Shown one piece after another: positions 63 to 17,780 of a stretch of 21,001 bases of DNA. Below the pieces are notes generated by a model. That model saw nothing but the letters and a program-made list of their open reading frames with translations, was not told the origin of the DNA and searched no databases. Origin of the DNA: a virus; IMG/VR virus record IMGVR_UViG_3300005077_000011, positions 1 to 21,001 of that record; one strand, given 5' to 3'. Position 1 is the first letter of the stretch. Each line of letters opens with the position of its first letter. The position numbers and the translations under genes are program-made.

Positions 63-166
63 AATAATAATGCTTCAATAACTTGGTTAGGCACTATGCA
101 CTTAAATCGTGCTTTCTTAAATGCTGCTAACCATTTTCTTGCTTCTTTCAATGTTATATGAGCCAT
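26..166 (-). CDS. 46-aa hypothetical helical protein overlapping tRNA-Thr and tRNA-His
   Basis: MAHITLKEARKWLAAFKKARFKCIVPNQVIEALLLVEKAKKRGTAL*; fills the unstructured spacer with phage-typical codons. Confidence 0.45.
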   Translation of the reverse strand: MAHITLKEARKWLAAFKKARFKCIVPNQVIEALLLVEKAKKRGTAL

Positions 167-232
167 CGAGAGGAATCGAACCTCTTACATGCTGTTTACA
201 AAACAGCTGTTCTGCCAGTGAACTACGAAGGC
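161..232 (-). tRNA. tRNA-Thr(UGU)
   Basis: GCCTTCG acceptor, GCTGT-TT-TGT-AA-ACAGC, T-loop TTCGATT. Confidence 0.95.
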
Positions 233-236
233 ATGG

Positions 237-372
237 GTTGAGGTAAACCAGTCTTTTATGTTACAAGGCTTGCGCCAGGCACTGCTTGTCTTCCGCTTCC
301 TACTTGCAAATAGGAAATTAGACTACAGACAACTCGAGAAAGTAGGCTTAAAGGGCTTAAAGCCCCCTCAAC
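237..372 (-). ncRNA. Unassigned structured RNA (~136 nt)
   Basis: Closing stem GTTGAGG/CCTCAAC; helices GGGCT/AGCCC, TAAGCC/GGTTTA, TTGTCT/AGACAA, TTCCTA/TAGGAA, GGC-GCAA-GCC. Confidence 0.55.
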
Positions 373-376
373 TTTG

Positions 377-449
377 TGCCGCCCCCAAGAATCGAACTCG
401 GATAATGTGATTTTCAGTCACACGCCTTGACCAGCTCGGCCAGAACGAC
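377..449 (-). tRNA. tRNA-Phe(GAA)
   Basis: TGTGA-CT-GAA-AA-TCACA; CCGAG-TTCGATT-CTTGG. Confidence 0.95.
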
Positions 450-450
450 T

Positions 451-527
451 AAGAGTGAGCATATCGTTACTGATTGAAAAATCGTATAATCAATCGAATT
501 AATTCTGTCAGACTATGACTCACTCTT
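451..527 (-). ncRNA. Unassigned stem-loop RNA (~77 nt)
   Basis: AAGAGTGAG(T)CATA pairs with TATG-CTCACTCTT (13 bp, one bulge); inner hairpin GATTGA/TCAATC. Confidence 0.45.
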
Positions 528-609
528 GTTGTACGAATATTAAATTCGTCTAATTGTTAGCTGACAGCACTATTCCTTAGATGTCGATTATCACCTGTAA
601 ATAGCCTTG

Positions 610-680
610 AGCGGAATACCAGAATTGAACTGGTTACTAATCATTGGCAATGATTCGTTTTGCCGGTAAACCAATCCCGC
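610..680 (-). tRNA. tRNA-Gly(GCC)
   Basis: GCGGGAT acceptor, AATCA-TT-GCC-AA-TGATT, U73. Confidence 0.95.
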
Positions 681-685
681 GGATC

Positions 686-755
686 TCCATGTAACTCCGT
701 ACGAAAGTTAGCACATGGATTAGCTTGCGAATAGAGCTCTTGCGGAACACTATTC
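686..755 (-). ncRNA. Two-hairpin structured spacer RNA
   Basis: GAATAG/CTATTC hairpin capped by GCAA; linker GCAAGCTAA; hairpin TCCATG/CATGGA with TAACT/AGTTA. Confidence 0.4.
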
Positions 756-760
756 CTTTG

Positions 761-832
761 AGGATCATAACAGAATCGAACTGTTGTTTAGTTGTTTTGC
801 AGACAACCGTGTTTCCACTTCACCAACGATCC
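761..832 (-). tRNA. tRNA-Cys(GCA)
   Basis: GTTGT-CT-GCA-AA-ACAAC, U73. Confidence 0.95.
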
Positions 833-889
833 ATGACAGAGATCCCAAAGGGTTCTCCGTAATCTTTTCTACACATGGTAGATAGACTG

Positions 890-961
890 TGGCTAATTAC
901 TGAATTGAACAGTAATCTGTCCCTTATGAGAGGACCGTAATGTCCATTATACCAAGTAGCC
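890..961 (-). tRNA. tRNA-Met(CAU), elongator-like (Ile2 not excluded)
   Basis: GGCTACT acceptor, GTCCT-CT-CAT-AA-GGGAC. Confidence 0.85.
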
Positions 962-970
962 ATTTATTTG

Positions 971-1040
971 TTGCGGCCCACGGAATCGCACCGTGACTTC
1001 AGGATTATGAGCCCTGTGTGCTGCTTTACACTAGACTGCA
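971..1040 (-). tRNA. tRNA-fMet(CAU), initiator-like
   Basis: CAGGG-CT-CAT-AA-TCCTG (GGG run in anticodon stem); 3' strand ...CCGCA-A; T-loop TGCGATT. Confidence 0.8.
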
Positions 1041-1041
1041 A

Positions 1042-1260
1042 TTATTCTTCTGTCAACTCTGAAGTATCTTCAAGAATATCTTCAACATGCTCTTGTTGTT
1101 TATTTACTGTCATCTGAATAAATAGAGACAAATAAATTGCTTCTAAAGATAATAATGTTGTTAATGTTAATAATACTTTTTCAAAGTCAAAAAAGAACAT
1201 GAGCAATATTGCTATTACAAATACTATTGTGTGCACAAACAAAGAGGACTTTGTTCCCAT
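1042..1260 (-). CDS. DUF1003-like small membrane protein (true start probably upstream, ACG at 1305)
   Basis: Two hydrophobic segments and the motif LTTLLSLEAIYLSLFIQMTVNKQ typical of DUF1003; frame open upstream (TKRKRANIIEDLIKW). Confidence 0.7.
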   Translation of the reverse strand: MGTKSSLFVHTIVFVIAILLMFFFDFEKVLLTLTTLLSLEAIYLSLFIQMTVNKQQEHVEDILEDTSELTEE

Positions 1261-1310
1261 CCATTTTATTAGATCTTCAATAATGTTTGCTCTTTTTCTT
1301 TTCGTGTCTG

Positions 1311-1381
1311 CACAGTCATAAAGAATCGAACTTTATCAAAGCGTTTTGGAGACGCTTGTGCAACCAGTACACCTTGACTGT
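1311..1381 (-). tRNA. tRNA-Trp(CCA)
   Basis: AGCGT-CT-CCA-AA-ACGCT, G73, A8. Confidence 0.95.
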
Positions 1382-1387
1382 ATTATG

Positions 1388-1472
1388 TGCTGATCCTAAG
1401 AGTTGAACTTAACGGCCCGGTTAAGGGTTCAGTTTTACAGACTGATTCGCCTCCGTAACGAACTATATCAGC
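1388..1472 (-). tRNA. tRNA-Tyr(GUA), long variable arm (bacterial type)
   Basis: TCAGT-CT-GTA-AA-ACTGA; G1-C72; long V-arm. Confidence 0.9.
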
Positions 1473-1503
1473 ATGAACTCCGTCTTTTGACGAATGTTCA
1501 TTG

Positions 1504-1588
1504 TGCACATGAGAGGAGTTGAACCTCTACGCTTTTTTAGGGCTCATCGTCCTTAGCGATGCGTGTCTGCCAATTTCACCACACGTGC
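1504..1588 (-). tRNA. tRNA-Leu(AAG)
   Basis: CATCG-CT-AAG-GA-CGATG; Leu-type D-loop AAATTGGCAGA; long V-region; A73. Confidence 0.92.
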
Positions 1589-1593
1589 ATTTG

Positions 1594-1666
1594 TCAAGAT
1601 AGAAAGACTCGAACTTTCAGTCTCCTGTTCCCAAAACAGGCGCGATGCCAATTTCGCTATATCCTG
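1594..1666 (-). tRNA. tRNA-Pro(UGG)
   Basis: C1-G72; CCTGT-TT-TGG-GA-ACAGG. Confidence 0.95.
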
Positions 1667-1705
1667 AAGTCAAGACCAGCCTTTATAGATGCTGGTCACA
1701 TCTTG

Positions 1706-1777
1706 CTCTGACGGAGAGATTCGAACTCCCGATATCCTCCTTAACAGGGAGGCGTTCTACCTCTGAACTACATCAGA
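1706..1777 (-). tRNA. tRNA-Asn(GUU)
   Basis: U1-A72, CCTCC-CT-GTT-AA-GGAGG, G73. Confidence 0.95.
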
Positions 1778-1779
1778 AT

Positions 1780-1856
1780 TGGCGAGCTTGACGGGATTCG
1801 AACCCGTGATCTGCTCCGTGACAGGGAGCCGGATTAAGCCACTTTCCCACAAACCC
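1780..1856 (-). tRNA. tRNA-Asp(GUC), only gene with encoded CCA
   Basis: GCTCC-CT-GTC-AC-GGAGC; ends G-CCA. Confidence 0.95.
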
Positions 1857-1862
1857 ATTTTG

Positions 1863-1933
1863 TTCCGCGCCCTAGATTCGAACTACAATTTCCTGCTTCA
1901 GAGGCAGACGTCCTACCGTTGAACGATCGCGGA
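1863..1933 (-). tRNA. tRNA-Gln(CUG)
   Basis: TCTGC-CT-CTG-AA-GCAGG; U1-A72; weak T-stem with a G-G mismatch. Confidence 0.85.
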
Positions 1934-1939
1934 ATCAAG

Positions 1940-2012
1940 TACTCTTACCGGGAGTCGAACCCAGATCCAGTGTTTCGAAGACACTCATTCTAGTCCATTA
2001 AACTATAAGAGC
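1940..2012 (-). tRNA. tRNA-Arg(UCG)
   Basis: AGTGT-CT-TCG-AA-ACACT. Confidence 0.95.
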
Positions 2013-2018
2013 ATTAAG

Positions 2019-2090
2019 TACCCCGTAGAGGAATTGAACCCCTATCCCGTCGTTAGAAGCGATGTATTCTGTCCATTGAACTAACAGGGC
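2019..2090 (-). tRNA. tRNA-Arg(UCU)
   Basis: CATCG-CT-TCT-AA-CGACG. Confidence 0.93.
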
Positions 2091-2095
2091 ATAAG

Positions 2096-2167
2096 TGAAT
2101 CCTGAAGGAGTTGAACCTTCCTAAGCCAGCTTAAAAGGCTGGTGCACTTCCGCTATGCCAAAGATCC
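2096..2167 (-). tRNA. tRNA-Lys(UUU)
   Basis: CCAGC-CT-TTT-AA-GCTGG. Confidence 0.95.
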
Positions 2168-2182
2168 TATCTATATTTGTAT

Positions 2183-2350
2183 CTATATTTTAGCATTATA
2201 TGAGCTCTTTTCTCCACATCTTTCACAGACGGGTATATCTAATTTATATGTAAATGTTCTTCCTGCTCCACTAACAGATCTTGTATAAATCCATTTATGT
2301 TGTCCAAGAATAGATTTTTTACACTTTGTTTCTTTGATTTCTTCTTTCAT
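2183..2350 (-). CDS. 55-aa zinc-binding microprotein (C..H..CxxC, DUF1660-like)
   Basis: MKEEIKETKCKKSILGQHKWIY...PVCERCGEKSSYNAKI*. Confidence 0.7.
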   Translation of the reverse strand: MKEEIKETKCKKSILGQHKWIYTRSVSGAGRTFTYKLDIPVCERCGEKSSYNAKI

Positions 2351-2360
2351 ACACGCATTG

Positions 2361-2432
2361 TGAATCCAGAAAGATTCGGACTTTCAACCGTCCGCTTAAG
2401 AGGCGGATGCTCTACCATTGAGCTATAGATCC
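2361..2432 (-). tRNA. tRNA-Lys(CUU)
   Basis: TCCGC-CT-CTT-AA-GCGGA; T-loop TCCGAAT. Confidence 0.95.
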
Positions 2433-2486
2433 AAAAAAAGGTGGCTTTACACGGTACAAAACATAAAGTAATGACGTGATCCACCT
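2433..2486 (-). other. Bulged stem-loop followed by U-tract (terminator-like or small RNA)
   Basis: AGGTGG/CCACCT and CACG/CGTG followed by a T-run. Confidence 0.35.
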
Positions 2487-2489
2487 AAG

Positions 2490-2563
2490 TGCCTATGAGA
2501 GGACTCGAACCTCTAGAACGCAGTTTCTAAAACTGCTGTCTTTGCCAATTTGACTACAAGGGC
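2490..2563 (-). tRNA. tRNA-Leu(UAG) lacking variable arm
   Basis: GCAGT-TT-TAG-AA-ACTGC; 5-nt V-region GTTCT; Leu-type D-loop; A73. Confidence 0.9.
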
Positions 2564-2567
2564 TATT

Positions 2568-2648
2568 TGAGCTACACCGCTTTTACTAATGGGACTAGAA
2601 AGCTCTTCGAAATGTCCCACAAGAGTCACAACTTTCAGCTCAGGTGAC
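2568..2648 (-). ncRNA. Unassigned pseudoknot-capable RNA (~80 nt)
   Basis: GTCAC/GTGAC, TGAGCT/AGCTCA, GTGGGAC/GTCCCAT, CTCTT/AAGAG. Confidence 0.5.
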
Positions 2649-2656
2649 GGTAAGAG

Positions 2657-2730
2657 TGCCTATAACAGGATTCGAACCTGTACTTGACCGCTTTTAAGAC
2701 GGTTGCCTCTGCCAGTTGGGCTATAAGGGC
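2657..2730 (-). tRNA. tRNA-Leu(UAA) lacking variable arm
   Basis: ACCGT-CT-TAA-AA-GCGGT; 5-nt V-region CAAGT; A73. Confidence 0.9.
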
Positions 2731-2731
2731 T

Positions 2732-2780
2732 TGGAGCCAGTGTTTTTATTTTACTGTGGTCATCCCCGGCGTCCCACATC
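2732..2780 (-). ncRNA. Small H-type pseudoknot candidate ending in CCA
   Basis: TGTGG/CCACA crossed with GCCGG/CTGGC, A-rich linker GTAAAATAAAAACA, 3' end TCCA. Confidence 0.4.
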
Positions 2781-2785
2781 TTGAG

Positions 2786-2864
2786 TGCTCATAGAAGGAT
2801 TCGAACCTTCATGCTTTCACAATAGTTTTTGAAACTATCGCGTATACCATTTCGCCATACGAGC
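2786..2864 (-). tRNA. tRNA-Leu(CAA), miniature variable arm
   Basis: ATAGT-TT-CAA-AA-ACTAT; V-arm GT-GAAA-GC (2 bp). Confidence 0.93.
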
Positions 2865-2869
2865 AATTC

Positions 2870-3069
2870 CAGGATATATAGTTGCGAACATTTCGTACCC
2901 TGAAGGGTTCGGTTAGATTTTGGTTTTCACCAAAACCCTTTGGCTGGTCGTTTTATAGGACTGAGCAATACATTCCTATGGGCCGACCTCTGCAATTGCT
3001 TTGCTCCGCCTTACGGCATTTAACTGATCTTCAGCCTTGATCAGCACCACCACAATTTAAGCCATTGTG
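2870..3069 (-). ncRNA. Unassigned multi-hairpin RNA (~200 nt) with two candidate pseudoknots
   Basis: CACAAT/ATTGTG, CTGATC/GATCAG, GCC-GTAA-GGC, GGTCG/CGACC, ATAGGA/TCCTAT, TTTTGGT-GAAA-ACCAAAA, ACCC-TTCA-GGGT. Confidence 0.6.
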
Positions 3070-3071
3070 AG

Positions 3072-3157
3072 CGGAAGAAGTGAGATTCGAACTCACGAGA
3101 ATCTTTCGACGCTGCCAATTTAGCAAACTGGCTAGGATAACCACTCCAGATTCTTCC
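3072..3157 (-). tRNA. tRNA-Ser(GCU)
   Basis: GGAAGAA acceptor, loop TT-GCT-AA, long V-arm with GAAA, G73. Confidence 0.92.
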
Positions 3158-3161
3158 AATG

Positions 3162-3247
3162 CGGAAGCTGAGGGATTCGAACCCCCAAGAGCTTGCGCCC
3201 GTGCCTGTTTTCAAGACAGGTTCCTTAACCGTTGGGATCAAGCTTCC
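3162..3247 (-). tRNA. tRNA-Ser(UGA)
   Basis: CCTGT-CT-TGA-AA-ACAGG; V-arm GGGC-GCAA-GCTC; G73. Confidence 0.95.
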
Positions 3248-3396
3248 AGATCTTTTCTTTTTTTAAAGTTCATTTTGTCAACAGTATCTCTCATCCAGTT
3301 CAAATGTAGCATCCTGCTCCATTCTCCTACAGATTTCATTGGAGAAAACATTTTTCTCCAGATTCGATGCTTGAATTTTTTCTTTTTAAAATTCAT
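3238..3396 (-). CDS. 52-aa basic microprotein; stop codon lies inside tRNA-Ser(UGA)
   Basis: MNFKKKKFKHRIWRKMFSPMKSVGEWSRMLHLNWMRDTVDKMNFKKRKDLEA*. Confidence 0.55.
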   Translation of the reverse strand: MNFKKKKFKHRIWRKMFSPMKSVGEWSRMLHLNWMRDTVDKMNFKKRKDLEA

Positions 3397-3399
3397 ATC

Positions 3400-3470
3400 T
3401 GTTAGTCTCTAAACCTTATCTGACGGTTGAAGTAAGTATCAGTTTAGAGCAACCGTAAATTATACTAACA
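3400..3470 (-). ncRNA. Nested pseudoknot directly upstream of the micro-ORF at 3396
   Basis: TGTTAGT/ACTAACA encloses crossing helices ACGGTTG/CAACCGT and CTCTAAAC/GTTTAGAG, all perfect Watson-Crick. Confidence 0.6.
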
Positions 3471-3473
3471 TTG

Positions 3474-3545
3474 TAGTCCCTAAGAGACTTGAACTCCCAA
3501 CCTTCTCTGTGTAAAAGAGTCGCTCTGCCATTGAGCTAAAGGACT
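3474..3545 (-). tRNA. tRNA-Val(UAC)
   Basis: CTCT-TT-TAC-AC-AGAG; A73. Confidence 0.93.
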
Positions 3546-3546
3546 G

Positions 3547-3617
3547 AGCATTCAAGGGGACTCGAACCCCTGACCGCTGCTTGGAAGGCAGCCGCGTTAC
3601 CACTACGCCATGAACGC
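3547..3617 (-). tRNA. tRNA-Gly(UCC)
   Basis: GCTGC-CT-TCC-AA-GCAGC; U73; 1-nt spacer to tRNA-Val. Confidence 0.95.
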
Positions 3618-3619
3618 AA

Positions 3620-3942
3620 TTAAAAAACTAACTATGGGAAAGAAGGCAATAAAAAATCCGTTTTTCCAATCAGCGGTTGTTCCAGGTTTCCCCAGTTCAA
3701 CATAAAAGGTCTAACAAGCTCCTTTACTGAACTTGCCACTCATTGAATCCTCTGCAGTAAAAATTTACATATGCCTGTAAGGTGATTGTTAAAATCTACT
3801 GGATTCGAGACCATTATCACTCTTGCGAGATCTAGGCTTACCTTTGATTATTTCGAAAGTCTAGATACTAATCACTTAGCTTCAAATGTGCACTAGCCCT
3901 GCGTAGCAGCTTATTATGCGATTCCCAAAGTTAATTTTTTAA
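3620..3942 (-). ncRNA. Large unassigned structured RNA (~320 nt)
   Basis: 21-nt imperfect terminal inverted repeat, many internal helices and GNRA loops, no long ORF, promoter immediately upstream. Confidence 0.65.
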
Positions 3943-3954
3943 TGTTCAAATACT

Positions 3955-3983
3955 ATTATATACCAACTTTTAAAATTTGTAAA
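3955..3983 (-). promoter_or_regulatory. sigma70-like promoter inside the tRNA array
   Basis: TTTACA-17 nt-TATAAT. Confidence 0.75.
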
Positions 3984-3994
3984 TATTCAATTTG

Positions 3995-4065
3995 TACCCC
4001 TACAGAGATTCGAACTCTGGCTACTACCTTGAGGGGGTAGTGTCCTGCCTCTAGACAACAGGGGC
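3995..4065 (-). tRNA. tRNA-Glu(CUC)
   Basis: CTACC-CC-CTC-AA-GGTAG (C33). Confidence 0.9.
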
Positions 4066-4073
4066 ATCAACTG

Positions 4074-4145
4074 TGGACCATAAGAGAATCGAACTCTTAC
4101 CTAAACTTTGCAAAAGTTTCGTTCTGCCATTAGCACTAATAGCCC
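4074..4145 (-). tRNA. tRNA-Ala(UGC)
   Basis: AAACT-TT-TGC-AA-AGTTT; G3-U70 identity pair. Confidence 0.95.
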
Positions 4146-4146
4146 T

Positions 4147-4212
4147 TTACTTCTTTTTGTTTTTCTTTGGTTTCTTTTTCTCGCGATTGCCGCGACGTTC
4201 TTTGTCTGCCAT
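4147..4212 (-). CDS. 21-aa Lys/Arg-rich microprotein
   Basis: MADKERRGNREKKKPKKNKKK*; fills the spacer between two tRNAs almost exactly. Confidence 0.65.
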   Translation of the reverse strand: MADKERRGNREKKKPKKNKKK

Positions 4213-4215
4213 ACG

Positions 4216-4289
4216 TAGCGTGTGCCGGATTCGGACCGGCGATCTTTTCCTTGAAAGGGAAACGAGTTGGGCCACTCCTCCAACACGCC
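4216..4289 (-). tRNA. tRNA-Glu(UUC)
   Basis: TTTCC-CT-TTC-AA-GGAAA; T-loop TCCGAAT. Confidence 0.93.
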
Positions 4290-4294
4290 TTAAG

Positions 4295-4365
4295 TTCCAC
4301 TGCTAGGAATCGAACCCAGATTAAGTGGTTCAAAGCCACCTGGCCTACCTTTAGCCGACTGTGGA
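4295..4365 (-). tRNA. tRNA-Gln(UUG)
   Basis: GGTGG-CT-TTG-AA-CCACT; U1-A72. Confidence 0.93.
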
Positions 4366-4370
4366 ATCAG

Positions 4371-4499
4371 TTATTTTTCTATAGGTTCTTTTGTAACAAA
4401 CTTACAATTTAAACACTTCCAGTTTGTTTTTGTACTTGTATCCTGTTTAATTAAATTTGTTGAGTCACATTTTGGACAATGTTTTGTTGTATCTGCCAT
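4371..4499 (-). CDS. 42-aa zinc-ribbon microprotein
   Basis: MADTTKHCPKCDSTNLIKQDTSTKTNWKCLNCKFVTKEPIEK*; two CxxC motifs. Confidence 0.75.
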   Translation of the reverse strand: MADTTKHCPKCDSTNLIKQDTSTKTNWKCLNCKFVTKEPIEK

Positions 4500-4502
4500 A
4501 AG

Positions 4503-4574
4503 TTGGTAAGACAGGATTTGAACCTGTGGCCTCTTCAATGTCAATGAAGCGTTCTTCCTCTGAACTACTCACCA
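4503..4574 (-). tRNA. tRNA-Val(GAC), first gene of the array
   Basis: CTTCA-TT-GAC-AT-TGAAG; TGGTGAG/CTTACCA acceptor. Confidence 0.93.
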
Positions 4575-5058: not shown

Positions 5059-5076
5059 TAGACAAAATATTATAGG

Positions 5077-5295
5077 TTATATGAGTTTATTCTCGATTTC
5101 AAGATAATAAGCTTTAAGAACAGCTTTTTCGAAGGTTTCTGCTTTATATCTACGACCAGTATTTATTTTAGGATTACCATACTTATCTATATCATAGACA
5201 TCTATAGAAGAAGAGCTCACAGGAGAAAATACACAATAAATGTGAAATTTACTTACTAACTTTCCTAGCTTGTCAGCATAAGAAGAATCATTCAT
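5077..5295 (-). CDS. Hypothetical protein (leaderless mRNA candidate)
   Basis: 72-aa ORF; ATG 7 nt after a TATAAT. Confidence 0.7.
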   Translation of the reverse strand: MNDSSYADKLGKLVSKFHIYCVFSPVSSSSIDVYDIDKYGNPKINTGRRYKAETFEKAVLKAYYLEIENKLI

Positions 5296-13441: not shown

Positions 13442-13472
13442 GTAATTGGCTAACACTAAAAAAGGAGCACTC

Positions 13473-14429
13473 ATGTCTGAAGAATTAATTCGGATTAGAC
13501 ACTTGGATAGTCCGAATATTACAGTTTTTATAGAAGGAAAACAAATTAACATTCGTAATTATGAAGCTTTGATACCTAGAAGCGACGCAAAAGCAATAGT
13601 ATCAGGGCCATATGGTTATGAATTAGTTGGTATATACGATGATTTCATCGTATATGTTAACAAAATTGACATCCAAACAAAAACTTTCAGACCAATGAGT
13701 GCTCTTGATAATAGTGTATTAGTAGGTACTTCATTAGCTGGTAGTAAATTATATGCTTGGGAAAAATATTCTCAAGCTCTTCTTACTTTAAAAGGCAAAG
13801 AAAAACTTCACTTACTCTTCACAATAGATGATTCAAAAGCCTCTTGGAAACAACAAATTCATGATTGGGCAGAAACTAATATTGACAAATTTTATAATAT
13901 AACTATTATTGAATGGGACTCAGATAAAGAAATGGCGTGGAATCGAGTATTCAAAATTACAGTAGGTCGACAACTTATCTTTAATTTTGCAAGGACTATT
14001 GAAAATATAACTCATATCTTTTTTATAGATTCAGACAATATAGTTCCAGAACATGCTTTTGAGACACTCTATTCACTTGAGAAGCCTGCAGTAGCAGGAT
14101 TGTATAACTTTAAATCAGTTGTTTCAGGAGGGCCAGTTGTATTTAACGGATATGGCGATAAAAATTGGCCGCCAACATGTCTAGGCAAGCAATTAGTAGA
14201 AACAAAACAAGATTCAGGTTTAATTGAATGTGACTGGACTGGAGCAGGATGTCTCATGATAAGCAGAAAAATATTTGAAAAATATAATTTTGATTGGTCT
14301 AGGTGGATACAACGGAACGGAGAAGACGCTTGGATATGTTTATGCGCTCAAAAAGAAACAGGTCAAAAACTTTTAGTAGATACTTCAGTAAAATGCGGAC
14401 ATTTAGATGATAGAGGTCAAATATGGTAG
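13473..14429 (+). CDS. GT-A (GT2-like) glycosyltransferase with extra N-terminal domain
   Basis: FFIDSD, DWTGAGCLMISR, GEDAWIC, VDTSVKCGH; SD AAGGAG before ATG 13473. Confidence 0.88.
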   Translation: MSEELIRIRHLDSPNITVFIEGKQINIRNYEALIPRSDAKAIVSGPYGYELVGIYDDFIVYVNKIDIQTKTFRPMSALDNSVLVGTSLAGSKLYAWEKYSQALLTLKGKEKLHLLFTIDDSKASWKQQIHDWAETNIDKFYNITIIEWDSDKEMAWNRVFKITVGRQLIFNFARTIENITHIFFIDSDNIVPEHAFETLYSLEKPAVAGLYNFKSVVSGGPVVFNGYGDKNWPPTCLGKQLVETKQDSGLIECDWTGAGCLMISRKIFEKYNFDWSRWIQRNGEDAWICLCAQKETGQKLLVDTSVKCGHLDDRGQIW

Positions 14430-15649
14430 ATGTAAAAATACGTCATCGGGATCATTTGAATATTGTTACTTTTATTGACGGAAAACAAATAAATATTAGA
14501 AATCATGAGGGAATTGTGCCTCTTGATCTTGCTTCAAAATTAATAGAATCTCCTTTTGGATATGAATGGGGAGCTCCTGTTGAACCTTTCAATAAAGAAA
14601 CTTGGACAAAAACTAACCGTAAAATTGTTTGGAATCATATTATGCCTTATTATGAAGGATATGGATATGTAGGACAAATGATGGTTTGGGCGCTTAAAGA
14701 ATTAGGAATAGATATTTCTATTTTTTATAAACCTGAAATGTATTATCTCAAAAGAGACATTATGGATCTTATTTTTAAAGAACGTCAATACGATTGTTGG
14801 GGAATATGGCATCATTTTTGGATGAAGCCTGGAATGTTACCACATGAGAAAAAAGCCATGTATACTATGTGGGAAAGTACTCAACTTCTTCCAGGATGGG
14901 CAAATGCGTGCAATGAAGTAAATATGATATTTGTTCCTTGCGAAGAAGATGTTAAAATCTTTAAAACAAATGGAGTAAAAGTTCCTATTAGAGTTTTGCA
15001 TCATGGAGTAGATCAAGAATTTTATTATTATCGACCAAAAGTAAAAAGAGATAAGTTTATTGTTGGAACAATAGGAAGTTTAGTCCCTCGAAAAGATCCT
15101 GAGCTTCTTATAAAAGCTTTTTTAGATGAATTTCGAAATGAAAAAGATGTTTTGCTATATATGAAAGACACAAACGAAGAAACAGATCTTTCAAATAAAT
15201 ACAAAGATAATGAAAAAATACAATTTAATGGAAAAAAAATATCACCTTTAGAATTAGGAGATTTATTAGCTTCTTTTGATATTGCTGTTTTTCCTTCTCA
15301 TGGAGAAGGCTTTGGACTCGGCGGACTTCAAGCTATGGGCGTTGGAACAACATGCATATGCACAAACTGGGGTGGGTTCAAAGAATATCTAAACTCAGAG
15401 TATAATTTTACTCTTGACTGTAAATTAGTTGATATAAAAAATATTGCCTCTAATAATACTTTTTATTCAGGGCAATGGGCTCAAGCAAGCTATGAACATC
15501 TTAGAAGTTTGCTTAGATATGCTTATGAACACAAAGATGAAATTCATAAAAAAGGGGAAAAAGCAGCTCAATGGGTAAAAGAATTTTGGACGTGGAAGCG
15601 ATGTGGTCAACAATTAATTAATGCAATTGATGAATACGAAAGAATATGA
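14423..15649 (+). CDS. GT-B (GT4-like) glycosyltransferase with the same N-terminal domain
   Basis: GYG, HGVD, PRK, FPSHGEGFGLGGLQAMGVG, TNWGG, FWTW. Confidence 0.92.
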   Translation: MVDVKIRHRDHLNIVTFIDGKQINIRNHEGIVPLDLASKLIESPFGYEWGAPVEPFNKETWTKTNRKIVWNHIMPYYEGYGYVGQMMVWALKELGIDISIFYKPEMYYLKRDIMDLIFKERQYDCWGIWHHFWMKPGMLPHEKKAMYTMWESTQLLPGWANACNEVNMIFVPCEEDVKIFKTNGVKVPIRVLHHGVDQEFYYYRPKVKRDKFIVGTIGSLVPRKDPELLIKAFLDEFRNEKDVLLYMKDTNEETDLSNKYKDNEKIQFNGKKISPLELGDLLASFDIAVFPSHGEGFGLGGLQAMGVGTTCICTNWGGFKEYLNSEYNFTLDCKLVDIKNIASNNTFYSGQWAQASYEHLRSLLRYAYEHKDEIHKKGEKAAQWVKEFWTWKRCGQQLINAIDEYERI

Positions 15650-16368
15650 ATACAATATGTGCAAACATGATATTAGGAGAAAAACCTGAACCATTTTTAG
15701 AATATTCTTTGAATTCGATAAAGTGGGTAGATGAACTTGTAATTGTTAATACAGGATCAAAAGACAATCTTAATATAAATATTGCAAAGTCTATTGTTCC
15801 TCATGCAAAATATTTAGATTTTTTTAACTCAAATTTGCCATTTACTTTTTCTAACGCAAGAAATTATGCACTAGACAACTCATCTGCATATTGGATTTTG
15901 TGGATTGATGCAGACGAAGTTCATTATAATCATCTAGAGAGAATATTAAGAGAAAGTCTTTCTTGGACACACTATGATGGCTTTCAATTTTGTTTTTATC
16001 ATTTTTTATTAGACGTATTTCATTATCAACATAAAGAATATAGAAAAAATGTATTTAAGCGAATAGGAAGAAGATGGAACGGAGACGTTCATGAACAAGT
16101 TTACCCTTTAGAAAATACTTTAAGTCTTGATTATTTTTATCATCATTACGGATATGTCAAACCACAACATTTAATTTATGAAAATTGGAAATTGTATTGG
16201 AGTCTAAATCCAGAAGAAAAATATAAACTTAATGAAAATAGAAATCCAAATGATATAATCTCTGACAGAGTCACTGTTGCTCATGAATATACAGGTTTAT
16301 ATCCAGAAGTTATTCAAGAATATATTAAAAAACAAAAACCTATTGTAAAAAATTATAATTTTCTTTAA
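15646..16368 (+). CDS. GT2 glycosyltransferase
   Basis: VDELVIVNTGSKD, FSNARN, WILWIDADE, GDVHEQV, HHYGY. Confidence 0.92.
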   Translation: MNTICANMILGEKPEPFLEYSLNSIKWVDELVIVNTGSKDNLNINIAKSIVPHAKYLDFFNSNLPFTFSNARNYALDNSSAYWILWIDADEVHYNHLERILRESLSWTHYDGFQFCFYHFLLDVFHYQHKEYRKNVFKRIGRRWNGDVHEQVYPLENTLSLDYFYHHYGYVKPQHLIYENWKLYWSLNPEEKYKLNENRNPNDIISDRVTVAHEYTGLYPEVIQEYIKKQKPIVKNYNFL

Positions 16369-16369
16369 T

Positions 16370-17029
16370 ATGAAAAAAATCGGAATAATACTTACTACAT
16401 TTAATAATTTAGAAATGACAAAAGTGTGTTTGCATTCATTGTTTGAAAATACAACAAATTATGAGTTAATTGTTGTTGATAACAATTCTACTGACGGCAC
16501 ACAAGATTGGATAAAAAAGCAAAATATTCAATTGATAGAATTAAAAGAATGGAAAGGAGTATCTAGTGCTATCAATCAAGGAATACGCTTCTTTTTTAAT
16601 AAAGAGAATGAAAAAACTTTTTATGACATTTGCTGGATTCATAATGATATGACTTTTTTTCCAAAATGGTTAAATGCTTTGCAAGAATATCTTGATAATC
16701 ATCCTGAATGTGGTCGTGTAGCTTCACATAATATGCGTGATCCATTAGCTCCTGAAAGGCCGGGAAATGAATTGCCATTTCTTATAAGAGGTGAATGCTT
16801 TAAAAAAATAGGAATGTTTGATGAACGTTTCAAAGGAGCAGCTGGCAAAGAAGATTGGGATTTCAATAATAGACTCTTAGATAATGGTTGGAAAATTATG
16901 ATTACTCCTGAATCAAAAGTATTTCATAAAGGCGCAGGAACAAGATCTGGACTTATGCCTAGAGAATGGGAAGAACATAATAATTGGTTATATTGGTCAA
17001 AGTGGGGAACAAATGAACCTAAAGTATAA
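16370..17029 (+). CDS. GT2 glycosyltransferase
   Basis: IVVDNNSTDGT, HND, GMFDERF, EDWDF. Confidence 0.92.
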   Translation: MKKIGIILTTFNNLEMTKVCLHSLFENTTNYELIVVDNNSTDGTQDWIKKQNIQLIELKEWKGVSSAINQGIRFFFNKENEKTFYDICWIHNDMTFFPKWLNALQEYLDNHPECGRVASHNMRDPLAPERPGNELPFLIRGECFKKIGMFDERFKGAAGKEDWDFNNRLLDNGWKIMITPESKVFHKGAGTRSGLMPREWEEHNNWLYWSKWGTNEPKV

Positions 17030-17780
17030 TATATCAGCAGTAATTCCTGTGTTAGGAAATTGGAATTACACAGAAAAATGCTTGACTTCTCTCTTTTCAA
17101 AGAGTGAATTCATAGATGAAATTATTGTTATAGATAATTCTAATGATAAAGATTCTACAAGAGCAATTATTAAAAACGGATATCCGTGTTCAATTTATGC
17201 TCCAGGAAGAAATCTTGGAGTCGGTCAATCATGGGATGCTGGAATAAAAATTGCAAAGAATAATATTATATGTGTTATAAATAATGACGTAGAAATTATT
17301 ACTGAAAAATGGGATACAATAATAATGACAGAATGGCAAAAGCATGAAGATGCAATAGTATTTTGTCCTTGGCCTGCAAGTCATGAGACTGAAGATCTAG
17401 CTCATATGGTTGATCCTTTAAAAGGTCTCAATGGAAGTTGTTTTTTTGTTGACAGAAATAGTCTACAATTAACTGACAACTATAAATTATTAGGACACTA
17501 TATTGATCCAATTTATCATTTAGCATATTGGGAAGATTGTGATTTGCTAGTTCAAGTTAGAAAATTAGGAAAAGAAAGTTATGTCACATCAAAAGTAAAA
17601 ACGGTTCACTATAGTAATAAAACAGCTGGACCACTGCTTCCAAGTAATAAAGGAATGAATAATCCTTATTGGAGTAATCTAGATAAATTTAATAAAAAAT
17701 ATGGAGTAAATATATGGGACTATTTCAAAGTGTTTATGAGTAATGTTCTTGATGAAAATTCAAACGAAAGGCTTATATGA
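17013..17780 (+). CDS. GT2 glycosyltransferase
   Basis: SAVIP, IIVIDN, NLGV, INND, AYWEDCD. Confidence 0.9.
   Translation: MNLKYNISAVIPVLGNWNYTEKCLTSLFSKSEFIDEIIVIDNSNDKDSTRAIIKNGYPCSIYAPGRNLGVGQSWDAGIKIAKNNIICVINNDVEIITEKWDTIIMTEWQKHEDAIVFCPWPASHETEDLAHMVDPLKGLNGSCFFVDRNSLQLTDNYKLLGHYIDPIYHLAYWEDCDLLVQVRKLGKESYVTSKVKTVHYSNKTAGPLLPSNKGMNNPYWSNLDKFNKKYGVNIWDYFKVFMSNVLDENSNERLI

Follow-up and report, generated by a model that had tools for sequence, protein, structure and literature searches.

A Conserved, Covarying Multi-Domain RNA Family of Phages, Absent from Rfam 15, with a Member Inside a tRNA Array

Introduction

Large, highly structured noncoding RNAs without an assigned function are, to our knowledge, rare, and the few that are known include GOLLD, ROOL, OLE and raiA. 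Each of these four opened new biology, the latest instance being RNA-only cages. ROOL is approximately 580 nt long, and RNAC and RNAD of phage T4, two much smaller RNAs, are approximately 120-140 nt long. A loose association with tRNAs has been reported for both GOLLD and ROOL; tRNAs are sometimes found in the linker region of GOLLD, and many GOLLD RNAs are longer than 800 nt (PMC12286853). RNAC and RNAD come from the tRNA region of the T4 genome and their roles are unknown (PMC3014915). A survey of IMG/VR produced 8,495 candidate structured RNAs with an average length of 67 nt (PMC10690425).

Here we describe an RNA encoded on the minus strand of a phage genome, at positions 3618-3948 of the window (the whole 21,001-nt stretch of DNA that was analysed). 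It is a member of a conserved, covarying, multi-domain family of phage RNAs that is absent from Rfam 15, and the family is a new class within a known kind, the large ornate phage RNAs. Like GOLLD and ROOL, which often lie near tRNA islands, the family is phage-encoded, large and multi-domain and has no assigned function, and two of its members lie in tRNA arrays; it differs from them in being about half the size (330 nt) and in matching no Rfam model. With T4 RNAC and RNAD it shares, in its array-borne members, a predicted transcription from a tRNA region and an expected release by tRNA processing, but the new family also occurs in phages that are free of tRNAs; homology to the two T4 RNAs was compared through Rfam only, where nothing matched.

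Results

The RNA Lies in the Largest Gap of a Phage tRNA Array

The window covers the initial 21 kb of IMG/VR record IMGVR_UViG_3300005077_000011 (89,947 bp, 96% complete; G000 below), a phage that encodes HK97-type portal and capsid genes. The genome has 33% G+C, and the coding part of the window approximately 30%. Directly 3' of the major capsid gene, within the structural module, is a run of four glycosyltransferase-like genes (13446-17780). The only related phage in IMG/VR, G001, has a portal that is 65% identical; relatives closer than G001 exist, with portals 76-81% identical.

The tRNA array of G000 consists of 29 genes on the minus strand (160-4574). It has neither tRNA-His nor tRNA-Ile(GAU), and two of its genes have a CAU anticodon, one of which may be of the Ile2 type. 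Several spacers of the array (3248-3472, 2865-3070 and 233-375) fold below shuffle expectation (z between -1.7 and -2.5), and terminal stems close some of them. One hairpin-forming spacer that follows a tRNA is common to G000 and G001 (approximately 2743-2783 of the window, minus strand, and approximately 2736-2775 of contig L011; approximately 72% identity, with matching stem arms), while most other array spacers cannot be aligned between the two phages.

The largest gap of the array (3618-3993) separates tRNA-Glu(CUC) on the upstream side (3994..4065, minus strand) from tRNA-Gly(UCC) on the downstream side (3546..3617, minus strand), and it is here that the RNA element sits. We take the whole RNA, approximately 331 nt, to run from its predicted start to the base that precedes tRNA-Gly(UCC) (3618..3948, minus strand), and its alignment with six homologues covers this extent from one end to the other. 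A first-pass annotation, made from the letters of the window, had proposed that an ornate RNA inside the array has a promoter of its own. The proposed sigma-70-type promoter, TTTACA-17-TATAAT, is present at 3983..3955 (minus strand), with its -35 hexamer 10 nt beyond the 3' end of tRNA-Glu(CUC). It matches at 11 of 12 positions, is the top sigma-70-like site in the first 6 kb and predicts a start near 3948. Promoters of this class (TTTACA, 16-18 nt, TAnAAT) occur eight times in the 90-kb genome, compared with approximately 1.6 expected by chance (an estimate from base composition), and one copy stands 9 nt upstream of the tmRNA of the same phage. Such a promoter is, however, found at the G000 copy of the RNA only; the G001 copy is without one, so that the claim holds for this phage but not family-wide.

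Single-Sequence Evidence Is Confined to the Closing Stem

Considered alone, the G000 sequence offers one strong signal. Its ends form an inverted repeat (5' strand 3922..3943, 3' strand 3619..3640, minus strand) with 20 of 22 positions complementary. When the window was dinucleotide-shuffled 300 times, no shuffle reached the score of this repeat, and across the whole G000 genome it is the sole such repeat within a distance of 600 nt. The helix begins approximately 6 nt past the predicted transcript start and ends one base before the +1 position of tRNA-Gly.

Coding potential is not evident in the gap. Stops interrupt all six frames, no ORF is longer than 36 amino acids, and a search of 5.8 billion proteins with a read-through translation gave no relative, for which reason we rejected a decayed or TGA-recoded ORF. 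The largest tRNA gap of G001 is filled by a MazG gene; a remnant of that gene was also considered for the G000 gap and was rejected.

The interior 281 nt show no excess of folding stability (z = +0.39 relative to shuffles; 127 of 200 shuffles fold equally well), and the counts of perfect stems of at least 5, 6 or 7 bp in the element equal the shuffle means. The whole element has a folding z of approximately -2.2 to -2.5, similar to other array spacers, and this value is due to the closing stem. As a control, we scored the interiors of the two genuine tmRNAs of G000 and G001, which fold at z of only -0.6 and -1.7. Thermodynamics therefore cannot decide the question in these AT-rich phages, where folding z-scores are weak discriminators.

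Covariance Models Recover Homologues in Six Further Viral Contigs

At the gathering score, Rfam 15 finds only tRNAs in the window, and even at E <= 10 it finds nothing over the element (3560-4050 searched). It also returns nothing at the gathering score on the five homologous loci described below, and nothing over the RNA at E <= 5 on one of them (L152). The models searched include GOLLD, ROOL, HEARO, RNase P, the group I intron, 6S, SRP and riboswitches, and the family belongs to none of them. The suggestion in the first-pass annotation that the RNA might be of a new class is thus borne out, no copy having a match in Rfam 15.

Ordinary sequence searches gave no homologue of the element. With blastn against GenBank phages we obtained tRNA matches only, and BLAST of the element against G001 gave nothing. 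Neither IMG/VR nor the JGI metagenomes gave matches to exact 19-21-mers taken from the RNA or tRNA-Gly. A pattern anchored on tRNA-Val matched 70 metagenome loci that have only that tRNA in common and contain no homologue of the element. This 25-nt pattern, with two free positions, covers the anticodon arm of tRNA-Val(GAC) and seven of the nine following bases; the 70 contigs (L012-L081) come from groundwater, marine and other metagenomes and share nothing else with the phage. The pattern is a possible clue to the lineage of the host.

R1, a covariance model of the single G000 sequence and its predicted fold, matches G001 at 5063-5232 with 33.1 bits, within the 240 nt that separate tRNA-Trp from tRNA-Met. 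The two copies have identical blocks of 6-11 bases at identical spacing, together with compensatory changes in several hairpins; BLAST missed the G001 copy because blocks of this length are too short for it. For the two sequences RNAalifold predicts 44 pairs, 14 of them compensatory, and none of 300 column shuffles reaches either the energy or the number of compensatory pairs. Strict patterns of three or two blocks found G001 only, plus chance matches in coding regions. When the pattern fixed the unpaired conserved bases only, it matched 38 IMG/VR loci, five of which (L121, L145, L152, L154 and L130) are picked by a covariance model of the two sequences (R2) with 111-136 bits and E-values from 1e-26 to 1e-33. 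The same model found nothing in the remaining pattern loci or in 97 further loci, and the RNA was not found in the 307 sampled genomes from two prokaryote phyla that were searched. The homologue search that the first-pass annotation had suggested was successful by covariance models and not by ordinary searches. A covariance model made from a single sequence can recover homologues that BLAST and exact-word searches overlook.

Seven Members Share a Covarying Fold of 12 Helices

We aligned the seven full-length sequences from seven viral contigs (G000, G001, L121, L145, L152, L154 and L130; alignment A7, 244-369 nt aligned, 65% mean column identity). The RNAalifold consensus of this alignment has 12 helices with 89 pairs (-82.2 kcal/mol), and 58 of the pairs show compensatory changes. 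The first-pass annotation had read the element as a structured noncoding RNA, and the sharing of this covarying fold by six further viral contigs bears it out. In 200 column shuffles that preserve conservation and gap classes, the energy is -9.1 +/- 2.7 (z = -27) and the number of covarying pairs 6.3 +/- 2.9 with a maximum of 15, compared with 61 observed by the same count; neither observed value is reached by any of the 200 shuffles, in statistics that, like the pair counts below, are based on seven sequences, two of them (L152 and L130) close to each other, and ignore kinship. The pairs are specific to their partners: 92.8% of cells are paired, compared with 74.9% when the 3' partners are re-dealt (reached in 0 of 500 trials) and 38-47% after a slide of 1-3 columns, the counting and the consensus structure both coming from the same alignment. 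The covariation score is 0.575, compared with 0.24 for re-dealt partners and 0.09-0.14 for slid ones. At several columns G-U pairs are invariant. Since these would be A-C mismatches on the opposite strand, selection acts on the RNA of the minus strand of the window.

In this fold the closing repeat, P1, joins both ends of the RNA and holds three domains: P2 with P2a, a three-hairpin junction closed by P3, and P4 together with P5-P7 (all on the minus strand). P1 is a long helix of approximately 11-22 bp across members; among its 19 consensus pairs 12 are compensatory, and 91% of cells are paired. P2 (3916-3919 / 3890-3893; 96% paired across members) encloses the hairpin P2a (3907-3911 / 3895-3899; 97% paired). 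The P3 domain (3812..3888) is closed by a stem (3885-3888 / 3812-3815) in which all four pairs covary, and it encloses P3a (3867-3880, with a GNRA loop; covariation at three of five pairs), P3b (3830-3866; nine of eleven) and P3c (3820-3829, with a GCAA loop; one of three). These four helices are 93-100% paired, and the junction has two GNRA loops. The loop of P3b (3842..3854) contains a 10-nt block, AAUAAUCAAA, that is invariant in all seven members. P4 (3801-3807 / 3744-3750; domain 3744..3807) has a tip whose length, derived from the arm lengths, varies between 26 and 92 nt among members. The 3' domain (3641..3737) contains P5 (3732-3737 / 3641-3646), P6 (3713-3727 / 3650-3663), which at 84% paired is the weakest helix, and P7 (3691-3700 / 3676-3686), which has a GAAA loop. 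G001 is without the P7 region, and this part of the fold is therefore dispensable. The G000 copy has all hallmarks of the family, namely P1, the P3 junction with its invariant loop, a P4 with variable tip, and P5-P7 with the GAAA hairpin.

The comparison also allows the helices proposed from the single sequence to be revised. All motifs quoted in the first-pass annotation are found where it had placed them, and the comparison bears out five of its helices, leaves one ambiguous and shows no conservation of the other three. Its closing stem corresponds to P1 in the comparison of the seven homologues, CUC-GCAA-GAG to P3c, GAAUCC/GGAUUC to P4 and GG-GAAA-CC to the tip of P7. The pairing of AUCUAG with CUAGAU also stands, but not as the pseudoknot that had been proposed; it is nested, as the outer part of P3b. 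GGCAA/UUGCC is the ambiguous case: the consensus P5 uses GGCAAG, with the 3' partner shifted by 3-4 nt. In place of UGAUUA/UAAUCA the family has the GNRA hairpin P3a, GUGAU/AUCAC falls in the tip of P4, which is variable, and conservation is also lacking for AGUUCAG/UUGAACU with AAAGG/CCUUU.

Genomic Context and the Possibility of a cis-Acting Device

The placement of the RNA in a tRNA array, as described in the first-pass annotation, applies to two members. The G000 and G001 copies are flanked by tRNAs, with no ORF on either side, but the other five lie in unrelated records in which neither ARAGORN nor the tRNA model finds a tRNA (L121, L145, L152, L154 and L130), one of these being a 95%-complete genome of 38 kb. 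Members of the family are found in tRNA-rich phages of 90 kb as well as in small tRNA-free ones. In all seven members the neighbours are on the same strand as the RNA. The genes downstream are not conserved: among them are a zinc-finger ORF, a gene for an HTH protein and one for a NinG/HNH-type nuclease, and L121 and L130 have their HNH and large-terminase genes within 0.3-2 kb downstream of the RNA.

Directly upstream of the RNA, four of the seven members have an ORF of 47-68 amino acids with two CxxC pairs (L121 1399-1575, plus strand; L154 857-1063, plus strand; L130 6969-7112, minus strand; L152 9024-9212, minus strand). These small ORFs have a common IYP(W/Y) motif, and their matches to zinc-ribbon Pfam families are all sub-threshold. 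The ORF is absent from G000. We regard the small putative zinc-ribbon protein as a candidate partner of the RNA.

The arrangement of this ORF also raises the possibility that the RNA is a cis-acting device. In L121, L152, L154 and L130 the stop codon of the small ORF lies within the 5' strand of P1, and the 3' strand of P1 ends in a conserved UAGG(G/A), a few to approximately 40 bases before the next start codon. P1 would then pair the end of the upstream ORF to a purine-rich stretch before the next start codon, and ribosomes terminating upstream would open P1 and so permit translation or processing of what follows. We consider this improbable. The G000 and G001 copies have no ORF on which such a switch could act, their flanks being tRNAs, and the conserved, covarying interior of approximately 300 nt exceeds by far what the switch needs. 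The genes downstream are, moreover, mutually unrelated, and with such different neighbours a cis role for any one of them is unlikely; a coupling role of P1 in the members flanked by ORFs is a minor alternative.

Spacer, tmRNA and DNA-Level Explanations

The element might instead be a processing or insulating spacer, in which an RNase III-type stem separates two tRNA sub-operons and the interior is functionless. The single-sequence data fit such a spacer rather well: the stem spans exactly the distance from transcript start to tRNA, the interior alone is without thermodynamic signal, and stems close other array spacers too. The comparative data contradict it, however, since the interior is conserved and covarying in six other phages, five of which are without any tRNA, and we now hold a mere spacer to be very unlikely.

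In two of the seven members (L145 10107-10475, minus strand; L154 1055-1419, plus strand) the tip of P4 holds a tRNA-like multibranch. A hairpin with a 7-nt T-loop-like loop is followed by a stem of 7-8 bp with GCCA in its loop, an arrangement like that of a closed or permuted top half of a tRNA. ARAGORN and the tRNA model make no call on this module, which has G-C instead of G-U as its third acceptor pair. In all, four of the seven members have links to tRNAs, two through their position in tRNA arrays and two through the tRNA-like module.

Could the RNA be a diverged or two-piece tmRNA, or another tRNA-derived RNA? The T-arm-like hairpin and the GCCA stem of L145 and L154 would fit such an origin, as would the size of the element (the tmRNAs of the two large phages are 328-333 nt), the joining of its ends in a helix and, in G000, the promoter class. 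The first-pass annotation had nevertheless set tmRNA aside, and our results agree. Both large phages have a standard tmRNA elsewhere (G000 69765-70092, plus strand, RF00023, 59.2 bits; G001, contig L103 4371-4703, RF00023, 65.1 bits, missed by ARAGORN), and the element has no sequence similarity to either. No tmRNA or tRNA model matches any member of the family, and ARAGORN finds none at the element. The tRNA-like part is optional, being missing in five of the seven members, and where present it has the G-C acceptor pair described above. Three-frame translations of the element, read informally, contain no obvious tag-like frame. A tmRNA or tRNA-derived origin is thus highly improbable.

The tmRNA genes of both phages have a hydrophobic micro-ORF of approximately 35-40 amino acids directly upstream (G000 approximately 69,630-69,750, which is L105 approximately 1370-1490; L103 4263-4370 in G001). 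The promoter of the G000 tmRNA overlaps the 3' end of this micro-ORF. The micro-ORF and the tmRNA gene may form a conserved pair.

Least credible of all is a DNA-level element, to which the unique inverted repeat of 22 bp on either side of 281 bp might point: a miniature transposon bounded by terminal inverted repeats is rejected because a search of the G000 genome finds a single copy and all 21 matches to the repeat pattern in IMG/VR and GTDB genomes are chance matches to one arm only, an invertible segment is rejected because serine and tyrosine recombinases (PF00239, PF00589) are absent from the 96%-complete genome, no target-site duplication is seen at the ends of the element, and selection at the RNA level is indicated because the closing helix of the homologues keeps its pairing, with G-U pairs, while its sequence changes.

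Discussion

Taken whole, the evidence is best explained by a conserved RNA family whose product is stable, acts in trans and has a role linked to tRNAs or translation, and we regard this combined explanation as probable. In G000 the RNA would be made from its own sigma-70-type promoter, with a further contribution by read-through from the array promoter. Cleavage by RNase P at the 5' end of tRNA-Gly would set its 3' end, the two ends would be sealed in P1, and P1 would make the RNA stable. On this model the RNA is presumably an independently folding molecule that acts in trans, and not a leader for one gene. It might serve as a scaffold, a decoy or an RNP that engages the tRNAs or the translation machinery of the host during infection, and in some phages it may work with the small zinc-ribbon protein encoded just upstream. 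Engagement of the host tRNA or translation machinery appears the most likely role because the links to tRNAs run in two ways, through the arrays and through the P4 module. A tRNA- or translation-related role, as is suspected for GOLLD and ROOL, is our best guess and draws on the analogy with these RNAs.

It is tempting to go further and to place the family alongside GOLLD and ROOL as a third class of large ornate phage RNA that has its own activity on tRNAs or ribosomes. We put this forward tentatively and think it unlikely. Such an RNA might be a self-assembling scaffold or cage, or else bind tRNA-shaped substrates as a ribozyme or RNP; the P4 module of some members would then be a tethered ligand and the zinc-ribbon protein a partner.

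Two other known RNAs invite comparison with the family. The bacterial Y RNA-like RNAs (YrlA) have a long end-to-end stem and a tRNA-like module with a loop closing its acceptor end, and we mention them as a lead only. The new family likewise has a long closing stem, and a loop-closed tRNA-like module in two of its seven members only; YrlA RNAs are, however, much shorter, and the new RNA has no Rfam match. The packaging RNA (pRNA) of phi29 is, like the new RNA, a structured RNA encoded by a phage, and the L121 and L130 copies lie upstream of HNH and large-terminase genes, but the new RNA is far larger, is not matched by Rfam and in G000 sits in a tRNA array. A packaging role for it is pure speculation.

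With its approximately 330 nt, 12 helices, optional tRNA-like module and candidate protein partner, the RNA that we favour as stable and trans-acting is a compact and testable system, and one that bears on why phages carry ornate RNAs beside their tRNAs.
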